Below are positions 4,764 to 58,411 of a DNA stretch of 64,000 nucleotides, one piece after another. Source of the stretch: a virus. The notes under the pieces were generated by a model. It was not told the DNA's origin, ran no database searches, and was given only the letters and a program-made list of their open reading frames with translations. Each line of letters begins with the position of its first letter. Within the stretch, counting starts at the first letter, position 1. The stretch spans positions 96,001-160,000 of IMG/VR virus record IMGVR_UViG_3300018080_000001; one strand, given 5' to 3'. The position numbers and the translations under genes are program-made.

Positions 4764-5672
4764 TTACCGAGGTTGAAGTGCATGATTCAGTATACTAGCC
4801 ACCGACCCGGGAATGGTTTCGGCATGCTTAACTACAAAATTTGCGATTTCTTGCAAATCGTTTTTATTAAAATTCTTATTACTGGCCGCTAAACTAAGAA
4901 TATCATCTTGAATTTCAGCCGTCTCATCAGCCGGGTCATCAACCGCAGAAATCTCTTGGAAAATAGTTCCCATACACTTTTCCCAAGCCAACCGCATTGA
5001 TCCATCTTTAGCCTTAAGCGGCATTCTGGCATGTTTTCCACGGACGCATTTACATAATTCAAAATCTGTAGTAGCTACGTTGCCGCATACTGCGCACTCC
5101 GTAGCAACAACATCACAACCCATAGAAAATTTTCTTACAGATCCACTCTTATACGCACTAGCAAGAGCTGGATCTTTTGTAGTATCTACGCCAATAAGCA
5201 ACTCTACAAAAACGTCCCGATCAACGTCTTTACCCAAAGCCTCTTTAACTGCTCTTTTAACAGTGTCATCAGCAGCATTCTGAGTATTGAGATGGCTATC
5301 TAATATAACACCACGACTTAATTTAAGATCGGAAGCATTATGGTTAACAAAATGAGGCTTTAAGTTATAAGTCTTATAAACTTGACTAGCAATTATATCA
5401 TCAAACCGCTCTAATTCAGCTTGTTCCCAACCATCCAAATTATTATTTGGACGGTCAGCACTATTTGCCCGAGCAGGAATAAAAATATAATCCCTTGGAT
5501 CTCTACTTATAACGTAAGCATCCGCAACAGAATCTAATGCAGCCTCAACATTCATATTCACTCCATCTTCCATATAAAAAGATGAAATTTTTGATGAAGC
5601 AGATTTAGATCTGGACCATGAACCATTATGTCGGAAACCTAATGGCTCCCACTGTGATATTTTTCTGAACAT
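4764..5672 (-). CDS. Prohead maturation protease with Cys-rich insertion
   Basis: FVNHN...GVILDS...FSMGC...CAVC...EISAVDDPAD pattern; position between portal and scaffold. Confidence 0.75.
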   Translation of the reverse strand: MFRKISQWEPLGFRHNGSWSRSKSASSKISSFYMEDGVNMNVEAALDSVADAYVISRDPRDYIFIPARANSADRPNNNLDGWEQAELERFDDIIASQVYKTYNLKPHFVNHNASDLKLSRGVILDSHLNTQNAADDTVKRAVKEALGKDVDRDVFVELLIGVDTTKDPALASAYKSGSVRKFSMGCDVVATECAVCGNVATTDFELCKCVRGKHARMPLKAKDGSMRLAWEKCMGTIFQEISAVDDPADETAEIQDDILSLAASNKNFNKNDLQEIANFVVKHAETIPGSVASILNHALQPR

Positions 5673-14035: not shown

Positions 14036-14202
14036 ATTCTCACCATTCCATACATAGGCATACAAGTACCTAGTAGAATTCTAATTTAAGTCTAACATGT
14101 AATCTCGTAGGGAATTTTAAATATAGTACTATATAGTAAGGAATATAAGCTCAGTACGGCATTAACTATAACATAAAAAAATAAAAAATATATCTCAGTA
14201 TA

Positions 14203-14230
14203 TTGACAGCTTAAAAAAGTGTATTATATT
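14203..14230 (+). promoter_or_regulatory. Sigma70-like promoter
   Basis: TTGACA-N16-TATATT with A-rich upstream element. Confidence 0.75.
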
Positions 14231-14436: not shown

Positions 14437-14454
14437 AAAACATATCTCAGTATA

Positions 14455-14483
14455 TTGACAGCTTAAAAATTAAGTACTATGTT
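14455..14483 (+). promoter_or_regulatory. Sigma70-like promoter (duplicate of 14203)
   Basis: TTGACA-N17-TATGTT; shares atatctcagtatattgacagcttaaaaa with the previous promoter. Confidence 0.75.
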
Positions 14484-45417: not shown

Positions 45418-45419
45418 CG

Positions 45420-45502
45420 TGCGAGAAGTGGGATTCGAACCCACAAGGGATTTCTCCCGTTGGATTTTAAGTCCAATCCGTAGACCGTTCCGGCATTCTC
45501 GC
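45420..45502 (-). tRNA. tRNA-Leu(TAA)
   Basis: GCGAGAA/TTCTCGC acceptor, TTGGA-CTTAAAA-TCCAA anticodon arm, long variable arm, GTGGG-TTCGAAT-CCCAC T-arm, A73; CCA not encoded. Confidence 0.93.
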
Positions 45503-49191: not shown

Positions 49192-49413
49192 TTATTCTAC
49201 TCCTTTTATATGACCTTGTTCCTGAAATTTCGGACCACATATACTAACACCTGCCATGACTTTTATTTTGTGGGCTTTACAATAACACCACGAACTGTGC
49301 AGATCATATTCGCATTCGGGACAGTCCGTACCTCCACAATAAGGCTTACTATCATTTTGTTTATAAAAAGGTTTTATTTTAGAACACATTTTATTACTCT
49401 TCACCATGTTCAA
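49192..49413 (-). CDS. Cys-rich small protein
   Basis: 73 aa ORF. Confidence 0.5.
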   Translation of the reverse strand: MNMVKSNKMCSKIKPFYKQNDSKPYCGGTDCPECEYDLHSSWCYCKAHKIKVMAGVSICGPKFQEQGHIKGVE

Positions 49414-49750
49414 TAGGATTCAACCAATCCAAAATAAACTCTGCTGCTTTATATACATCTTCTTCATTAAATGAAATTTTTTTCTTATATGTTTCTTCAT
49501 CAATACCATCCATACAAGAATTTTCCATTTTATAAACTACAATACCATCTGCATTTTTACAATTCGAGAAATAAGCTACGCGACCTTTAGCGCATGGTTG
49601 GACACTAGAAGAATAGAGTTGTACGCAGAATCCGTTTTCTCTCCCATTGTGATAAGTAACAACACAACCATTCAATGCGTAGTCGTTAAACTTCATTTCC
49701 AAAATACACAGAACAGCTTCTGCTTGCTTCCAAGTTCTGATGAGACCCAT
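49394..49750 (-). CDS. Hypothetical protein
   Basis: 118 aa, AAGGGG RBS. Confidence 0.65.
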   Translation of the reverse strand: MGLIRTWKQAEAVLCILEMKFNDYALNGCVVTYHNGRENGFCVQLYSSSVQPCAKGRVAYFSNCKNADGIVVYKMENSCMDGIDEETYKKKISFNEEDVYKAAEFILDWLNPIEHGEE

Positions 49751-49775
49751 GATATTACCCCTTTCTGTTCATATA

Positions 49776-50100
49776 AAACTAAACACTACATGGTGGATGA
49801 CATCGCTGTACCTTCCCAGGCGCTTTGGTGTGACCCGTTGTCGGCTACACTGGCTTTTCCACCTTTCGGTTTCGTCCTCCTAGAACTTAACGTTCATCAT
49901 CGGAGTAACACCATACCGCTTCCGAGTCCTGTAAATCTTGCCCTTTTGGATACCTTACTGGACTTATTAGCTTACGCTTTGGCCAACCCTACTCAATTCG
50001 GGATGCTCGGTATCGAAGGCTCAACAGTCATCGCGTCCACTTTCCCACGTTTTCGGCAGACGTTCTTCAGCCTGTCATCCACCATGTAGTATTTAGTTTT
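49776..50100 (-). ncRNA. Unknown structured RNA (about 325 nt) closed by a 28-bp stem
   Basis: AAAACTAAATACTACATGGTGGATGACA ... TGTCATCCACCATGTAGTGTTTAGTTTT; GNRA-capped hairpins; own promoter. Confidence 0.7.
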
Positions 50101-50128
50101 CAAAGAACTTTATTAATTTCTAATATAT

Positions 50129-50156
50129 AATATAGTCTTTAAAACTTATCTGTCAA
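50129..50156 (-). promoter_or_regulatory. Sigma70-like promoter driving the ncRNA
   Basis: TTGACA-N16-TATATT. Confidence 0.75.
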
Positions 50157-50170
50157 TATATCTAACTAAA

Positions 50171-50428
50171 TTATTCTTCTTTTTCTTCTAGATAAAACCA
50201 TCTGGCAACAAAACAAGAATACAATTCCAAATAGGGACTTTTAAGACAGTACAAAATTCTAGTAACTTCTTCCCATTCGTCAACACCAAGAAAATCTACT
50301 AAGCCAACTTGAGCTTCAAGTTTTATTAGTTCATCAATAGTAGATACCTCGACTATCATTTCTCTAATAATAATTAAGTCCTCGTTAAATTCAGTTGGAG
50401 TTTTCTCTGCATCGATTAACTTGATCAT
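50171..50428 (-). CDS. Hypothetical protein
   Basis: 85 aa, GGAGG RBS, own promoter. Confidence 0.65.
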   Translation of the reverse strand: MIKLIDAEKTPTEFNEDLIIIREMIVEVSTIDELIKLEAQVGLVDFLGVDEWEEVTRILYCLKSPYLELYSCFVARWFYLEEKEE

Positions 50429-50454: not shown

Positions 50455-50483
50455 AACATAACACGCCAATTTTATGCTGTCAA
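50455..50483 (-). promoter_or_regulatory. Sigma70-like promoter
   Basis: TTGACA-N17-TATGTT; module shared with 57534-57562. Confidence 0.75.
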
Positions 50484-50511
50484 TATATTGAAGTAACTTT
50501 TTAGAATTTTT

Positions 50512-57815: not shown

Positions 57816-57895
57816 TGGGGGAGATGGCAGGATTCGAACCTGCATGTTCCCCTTTGGGTGAGTTTTCCACGGTGGCCACCTACTCTACATCTCCC
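57816..57895 (-). ncRNA. tRNA-like element lacking a normal anticodon arm
   Basis: (G)GGAGATG/CATCTCC-C-CCA acceptor, GCAGG-TTCGAAT-CCTGC T-arm, GAGT/ACTC D-stem with oversized loop, anticodon arm reduced to CCC-AAA-GGG. Confidence 0.7.
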
Positions 57896-58099: not shown

Positions 58100-58411
58100 T
58101 TAGTCGGCAACTTGTTGCCAACCACGGGGGAGAAACTCTTGCTGCCGTACAACCTTGTAGTTTCCCACGGGAAGGTCAATAGGCGCGTGCTCATCGTGCA
58201 GCAGCTTAGACTGCTTAAGGCACTCAATATACATCGAAGCTCCCGCCATCATGATAGCGGCCTGTGCACCCGCAGAAAGCCTATGCGTATGACCAGTGAC
58301 TTCACCCCTGGCAACGATGTTGGTAGTCTGCTTTTGAGCATCCTCCGGAATGTCTGCAATCTCCATGATAAGAATGTCGCCCTGCCTACGTTGAATCAGA
58401 TTCTTTTCCAT
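58100..58411 (-). CDS. RQGD...GExTGHxH...HxEH protein (recalled as a usual neighbour of DUF6745 genes)
   Basis: RQGDILI, GEVTGHTH, LLHDEHAPIDLPVGNYKVVRQQEF; AAGGAG RBS. Confidence 0.75.
   Translation of the reverse strand: MEKNLIQRRQGDILIMEIADIPEDAQKQTTNIVARGEVTGHTHRLSAGAQAAIMMAGASMYIECLKQSKLLHDEHAPIDLPVGNYKVVRQQEFLPRGWQQVAD

Follow-up and report, generated by a model that had tools for sequence, protein, structure and literature searches.

Signals for the host Nus factors and for RNase III are known from several phage early operons, among them the boxA of the lambda nut sites, the boxA sequences downstream of the T7 promoters A1–A3 and the RNase III sites of the T7 and SP82 early mRNAs. In rRNA operons, boxA and the leader–trailer helices have a published role (PMC10250234, PMC4807359, PMC5725501). 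The locus compared with these systems here is an element on the minus strand of a phage genome, where signals of the same kind appear to bracket a non-coding stretch. Judged from its sequence, the element is most likely the source of an orphan early non-coding RNA released from an rRNA-style cassette. Stated in full, the reading is that an rRNA-style expression and processing cassette with a non-coding cargo is processed to release an RNA of ~270–300 nt while the polymerase reads on into a 118-aa gene, and we give this a probability of about 0.55. The motifs themselves are direct evidence for the identity of the putative cassette; that the cargo is processed, is stable or has some function in trans is what we infer from them.

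The window, the stretch of 64,000 nt that was analysed, comprises bases 96001–160000 of a 170,099-bp IMG/VR genome from an uncultivated phage, with direct terminal repeats at the genome ends. A JGI metagenome contig (L016, sample 3300017991) is identical across the region. The genes of this region are encoded almost exclusively by the minus strand, and the element sits in a series of small genes of early type that is bounded by a topoisomerase-like gene, an HTH repressor-like gene and GmrSD_N/DUF4304 genes. Upstream of the element is a gene for an 85-aa orphan protein (50171–50428, minus strand) with a promoter of its own at 50483–50455. Downstream is the gene for a 118-aa protein of unknown function (phrog_6319; 49394–49750, minus strand), which is co-transcribed and preceded by a Shine–Dalgarno sequence, AAAGGGG, at 49764–49758. 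The element does not adjoin the tRNA gene, which is at 45419–45502. We also note a tRNA-like gene at 57819–57894 (minus strand), with the acceptor stem GGGAGAU/AUCUCCC, the T-arm GGTTCGAATCC and an encoded CCA; it scores 35.7 bits with the Rfam tRNA model, ARAGORN makes no call, and the gene could represent a tRNA of aberrant or non-canonical type.

The predicted promoter is of the σA/σ70 type and occupies 50129–50156 on the minus strand. It combines the –35 hexamer TTGACA (50156–50151), a 16-nt spacer and the –10 hexamer TATATT (50134–50129), matching at 11 of 12 positions, which agrees with the promoter that had been proposed from the letters alone. Transcription would start near 50122. Promoter-like sites as such are not enriched in this A+T-rich genome (16, against 11.7 in shuffled sequence). 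However, the context ATA-TTGACA-G is common to five of the best-scoring promoters, including those of the element and of the upstream gene, and because the top promoters share this context we accept that the element's promoter belongs to a genuine class of phage promoters. More generally, the genome contains a phage-specific promoter family with the extended –35 context (A/G)TA-TTGACA-G, several members of which have up to 17 identical bases; sites of this family are found in the window at 50486–50477, 57565–57556, 14200–14209 and 14452–14461 and in the genome at 161377, 60053 and 48687.

The promoter is followed, about 14 nt downstream, by a boxA. The boxA region, GTTCTTTGAAAACTAAATAC, lies on the transcribed strand at 50089–50108 (boxA proper at approximately 50108–50095) and begins shortly after the end of the –10 hexamer at 50129; it forms RNA positions 1–20 and the first 20 nt of the 5′ arm of the inverted repeat described below. 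It agrees with the Escherichia coli boxA consensus GYTCTTTAANA at 10 of 11 positions (PMC5725501) and with the standard mycoplasma 16S–23S spacer PCR primer at 17 of 18 (PMC4312986), and the phage genome holds only this one boxA site. A scan of 185,579 species genomes located the exact 20-mer at 17 sites, 13 of them demonstrably inside or adjoining rRNA operons: 10–12 nt upstream of 16S (L103, L104, L109, L112 and L116), 26–119 nt upstream of 23S (L101, L105, L107, L110, L113 and L117) or, as the reverse complement, just 3′ of 23S and before 5S in two Ureaplasma genomes (L106 and L111). The similarity to the rrn loci stops at boxA; the rest of the arms and the cargo match nothing there, and a search of the same 185,579 genomes for boxA plus arm returned nothing. 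The boxA at the start of the 5′ arm, which is absent from the sequence-only reading and goes beyond it, strengthens the case for a processing cassette.

Two further occurrences of this sequence type may be recorded in their own right. In a Ruminococcus MAG (L108), the exact 20-mer lies at 5065–5084, outside any rRNA operon, and a pemK RNA motif follows ~200 nt downstream, at 5286–5403. A boxA-like 17-mer is also present in the 5′ arm of a 137-nt hairpin in a family of prophages (L017, L025, L044, L047, L055, L056, L077, L087 and L090, with a variant in L083), and directly after this hairpin stands a sequence resembling group II intron domain V, CTGTATGCGATGAAAGTCGCACGTACAG; in these prophages the 17-mer probably lies inside a group II intron.

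The inverted-repeat search identified two 36-nt arms of 89% complementarity, 270 nt apart, as a leader–trailer-like helix on the minus strand. The 5′ arm is at 50073–50108 (core 50100–50073) and the 3′ arm at 49767–49802 (core 49802–49775). The core helix of 28 bp pairs RNA positions 9–36 with 307–334, and its sole non-Watson–Crick pair is a G·U on the minus strand; the 28-bp repeat with a single such pair that had been described earlier is thus borne out, within longer arms. The duplex energy is –57.1 kcal/mol, and no inverted repeat within 3 kb is longer anywhere in the 170-kb genome. The helix is built of GUUC/GAAC, a 4 × 4 internal loop and then AAAACUAAAUAC… paired with …GUGUUUAGUUUU. Thus, boxA and the next 24 nt constitute the 5′ strand of a helix of 28–36 bp, the 3′ strand of which comes 270 nt further on. 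[quoted passage not shown] Because the boxA bases are the 5′ strand of this helix in rRNA operons too, the phage seems to have copied the logic by which rRNA is expressed and processed. The proposal of an RNase III-type processing stem is in keeping with these observations: the helix is of that type, with boxA in its 5′ strand, and cleavage is predicted. An RNase III gene was not found in a search of the phage genome, and therefore the host enzyme would have to cut the helix.

A near-perfect 28-bp inverted repeat around an interior of foreign-looking composition, with equal fold scores on both strands, could also be the signature of a DNA-level element, either a MITE-like insertion with terminal inverted repeats or a site for replication or recombination. 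We consider this very improbable. Dispersed copies with target-site duplications, the marks by which the sequence-only reading would have recognized a MITE, are not found: the element is single-copy in the genome, its arms do not occur as a pair in viral contigs and its flanks carry no target-site duplication. The arms also contain a boxA that is correctly oriented and closely follows a promoter, the arrangement seen in rRNA operons, which speaks against a DNA-level role.

Expression from the proposed rRNA-style cassette would proceed as follows. Host RNA polymerase would start at the early promoter, and boxA would be bound by host NusB and NusE, which together with NusA and NusG would give a termination-resistant polymerase complex of the rRNA type. 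With boxA tethered to the polymerase, the distant 3′ arm could find the 5′ arm, and host RNase III could then cut the long helix to leave a cargo RNA of ~270–300 nt with a short duplex end. The modified polymerase would go on to transcribe the 118-aa gene and those that follow it, and the released RNA would be a stable early phage non-coding RNA acting in trans. That the phage makes a stable RNA at all is probable because signals of the rRNA type (a strong promoter, boxA and a long flanking helix) drive a protein-free stretch.

Is this arrangement peculiar to the element? Among 64 viral loci with a boxA 17-mer and enough downstream sequence, seven, counting the element, carry boxA in an arm whose pairing with sequence 0.3–1.5 kb downstream reaches –34 kcal/mol or better, compared with none of 192 composition controls. 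A metagenome scan for boxA, ~300 nt and a boxA complement returned one cassette, L200 (330–677, minus strand), with a protein cargo. The layout of promoter, boxA, 5′ arm, cargo, 3′ arm and next gene recurs in L200, in L092 (4632–4976, plus strand), L027 (3192–3662, plus strand) and L051 (2775–3234, plus strand), and in L043, L041 and L034, and the next gene stands right behind the 3′ arm, as it does in the element. The cargo of every other cassette found is a protein gene with a Shine–Dalgarno sequence and a start codon; the products are proteins of 65, 87, 113, 122, 130 and 276 aa of unknown family and a 412-aa integrase. The cassette is therefore an expression module that recurs in phages, the peculiarity of the element being its non-coding cargo, and the recurrence suggests that rRNA-operon-like bracketing is a general way of handling early phage genes. 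Because the cassettes of other phages bracket small protein genes, the presence of the cassette is uninformative as to the nature of what it carries.

The position of the 118-aa gene, whose start codon comes 17 nt past the end of the 3′ arm with no terminator between helix and gene, would also suit a long cis-acting leader of that gene, either riboswitch-like or a translational control element. This is improbable in our view, since the downstream genes of the other cassettes follow equally closely behind a cargo that codes for protein. In addition, no riboswitch or leader family matches at E values up to 10, and no expression platform overlaps the Shine–Dalgarno sequence.

The cargo itself comprises 270 nt (49803–50072, minus strand) and is non-coding on the transcribed strand, where each of the three frames holds five or six stops, of all three kinds. 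It is 62% purine and has a G+C content of 51.1%, compared with 35.3% for the window and 16 points above the genome; a G+C-richer non-coding island, as described previously, is therefore evident. High G+C alone does not mark RNA genes here because a 103-aa gene at 58100–58411 of the window (minus strand) is also ~53% G+C in this 35% G+C phage. Three hairpins with stems of at least 3 bp are capped by GNRA loops: AGC-GUAA-GCU (49969–49978), ACC-GAAA-GGU (49861–49870, preceded by GGACGAA) and GCCU-GGGA-AGGU (49810–49821, with CCU-GGGA-AGG at 49811–49820), all on the minus strand. The three had been noticed earlier, and they exceed the 0.26 expected from dinucleotide shuffles (P = 0.004), on the transcribed strand only; a fourth GNRA-capped hairpin is present at the helix base. 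Elsewhere in the genome, three loci have at least three GNRA hairpins per 270 nt, and all of them are coding, their hairpins having A+T-rich stems or stemming from a coding motif that is repeated, which leaves the cargo as the only non-coding locus of this kind in the genome. The tetramer CCGA is present six times where 1.6 would be expected, an excess that is no longer significant once all 256 tetramers are corrected for.

Beyond these hairpins, the interior shows little sign of a fold. The whole element gives z = –6.6 on the minus strand and –6.9 on the plus strand, and we do not take this score as evidence of interior structure because the inverted repeat produces it and the plus strand scores equally. 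The 270-nt interior alone folds no better than shuffled sequence (z = +0.13 minus, +0.17 plus), and none of its 90- and 130-nt sub-windows on the minus strand falls below z = –1.1. Long-range complementarity beyond chance was not found in the cargo either: five-mers number 16 against 24 expected from shuffles, and six-mers 3 against 5.5. The longer-range and pseudoknotted pairings of 5–6 nt listed in the sequence-only reading are thus rarer than in shuffled sequence, and the elaborately structured interior that they implied finds no counterpart in fold energy or pairing. A search of the phage genome and of the rrn loci for sequences that the cargo could target by antisense pairing found none.

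Taken together, these properties bear on the main rival to our reading, which is that the cassette is functional and the cargo inert filler. The promoter, boxA and helix would then act solely for the downstream early mRNA, by loading antitermination factors and by processing or stabilising that transcript, and the 270 nt between the arms would be a relic, such as foreign DNA or what is left of a displaced cargo gene. The module would work whatever it carries, as the other cassettes, which bracket genes, illustrate; the fold of the cargo is at chance level, no homologue was found, and the gap upstream of the related gene discussed below is shorter. Against this, neutral sequence in a phage of 35% G+C should not keep 51% G+C, the GNRA hairpins are enriched, and all frames hold five to six stops of all three kinds. 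Because of these stops, the cargo is not a recently decayed gene. On balance, an inert cargo is possible, although we regard it as doubtful.

An abundant early non-coding RNA, as the sequence-only reading had it, therefore keeps its promoter and its RNase III-type helix and gains a boxA, and it loses its elaborate interior and its likeness to a ribozyme. For the role of such a cargo we can offer only a guess, the most plausible being a protein-binding decoy or scaffold, in which four small hairpins with GNRA caps would stud a G+A-rich loop that is otherwise largely open. A more ambitious version, which we think rather unlikely, is that the cargo represents a new class of phage non-coding RNA, which the host rRNA machinery (the Nus complex and RNase III) would fold and mature. 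Such a pseudo-rRNA would form a ribonucleoprotein or a decoy while the host is taken over, and might, for instance, titrate a defence sensor or a host factor that binds RNA.

The likeness to a ribozyme comes from hammerhead-like fragments. A core-like heptamer, CUGAAGA, is present at 50064–50070 (minus strand), and the bases that follow, 50062–50055, pair with 49880–49873; CUGANGA, a helix, GAAA and a GAAA-capped helix III (CGAAAC-C-GAAA-GGU) thus appear in the right order, and the last string is identical to that of the phage hammerheads in L137, L156 and L198. Nevertheless, a self-cleaving ribozyme derived from the hammerhead is hardly credible, as three defining features fail: two extra bases (A46 and C47) separate A9 from the first pair of helix II, cleavage position 17 is a G where H is required, and helix I is lacking next to the site, where the following bases cannot pair 5′ of the core. 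No Rfam hammerhead model matches, and we judge the element not to be a hammerhead. Canonical hammerheads were met by chance in a 15-mer scan of unrelated viral contigs (L137, L158, L156, L198 and L179). They consist of CUGAUGA or CUGAAGA, helix II, CGAAAC and ACC-GAAA-GGU, followed by C or A; the ACC-GAAA-GGU string is helix III in these real phage hammerheads.

Several other identities were considered and set aside. The pairs GAUACC/GGUAUC and AGUCC/GGACU have the P3/P7 topology of a group I intron, but there is no P8 hairpin, host gene or Rfam match, and complementarities of this size occur in the cargo at chance frequency. A retron msr-msd or DRT non-coding RNA was rejected because the RVT_1 domain is absent from the whole genome, and a TnpB/IscB guide RNA or Ro Y RNA because TnpB-type and TROVE domains are absent from it. 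An antisense frame of 99 codons (49790–50089, plus strand) is open from arm to arm and could in principle encode a 99-aa protein. It is almost certainly spurious: it lies antisense to the whole operon, on a pyrimidine-rich strand that rarely has stops, and frames of this length arise in 4% of shuffles. It also has no Shine–Dalgarno sequence and no Pfam match, the JGI annotation calls no gene there, and among 1.84 billion representative proteins it matched only translated tandem repeats.

Searches for families and relatives found none for the cargo. An Rfam scan had been suggested as the route to a known RNA class; with the Rfam 15 covariance models, at the gathering threshold and at E values up to 10, the element yielded only three chance-level matches (E 2–9) and no family. 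The cargo has no match to SSU, LSU or 5S rRNA, and ARAGORN recognizes neither a tRNA nor a tmRNA in the element. A blastn search of the element against INPHARED phages and PLSDB plasmids found no match, and exact-motif scans of IMG/VR viral contigs, for which the arm and four motifs from the interior were used, gave only chance or unrelated matches when checked by nhmmer. In a 400-genome sample from the class of a Bacilli MAG, the cargo found only chance matches of 27–32 nt. Approaches through the flanking proteins fared similarly: the 85-aa upstream protein has no homologue, and the topoisomerase-like protein is conserved too widely to single out relatives. The 118-aa protein has one detectable homologue, P0002, at 57% identity on a Logan contig. 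The gap upstream of the P0002 gene is 249 nt, compared with a unit of ~420 nt here. The cassette unit may thus not be conserved there, with the caveat that the ORF annotated directly ahead of the gap might itself be spurious. The cargo RNA is thus an orphan, without a homologue by any nucleotide or flanking-protein route searched.

If the cargo is a real processed RNA, the phage would have borrowed a complete rRNA production line, consisting of promoter, boxA and leader–trailer helix, for an RNA of its own, and the element would be a defined and easily tested entry point to a new phage non-coding RNA. Together with the cassettes that carry protein genes, it would also show that phages of Bacillota-type hosts repeatedly construct their early transcripts by bracketing in the rRNA style. 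Should the cargo be filler instead, the locus would still offer a clean natural example of the boxA–helix architecture outside rRNA operons.

How the element stands among known systems can be summarized by what is shared and what differs in each case. The large and stable phage RNAs, ROOL (RF03087), GOLLD (RF02032) and T4 RNAs C and D, resemble it in being phage-encoded, non-coding, G+C-richer than their surroundings and of unknown function. In contrast to them, the RNA of the element is much smaller, has no Rfam match, does not lie beside the tRNA gene and has a fold that energy does not support. The other phage boxA–helix cassettes share its layout but differ in carrying protein cargo, whereas that of the element has no usable ORF and a strongly deviant composition. 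What it has in common with the boxA and RNase III devices of phage early operons is that signals for the host Nus factors and RNase III are built into an early phage transcript. Relative to the leader and spacer regions of rRNA operons, where the helix is cut by RNase III or Mini-III, the differences are a 270-nt cargo unlike 16S, 23S or 5S, a phage-encoded location and protein genes directly after. The similarities extend to a strong promoter upstream and to an identical boxA 20-mer, which in both cases belongs to the 5′ strand of a long-range helix and has its complement on the 3′ side. The phage helix has the same construction as the natural 16S and 23S leader–trailer helices of Bacilli and Mollicutes.
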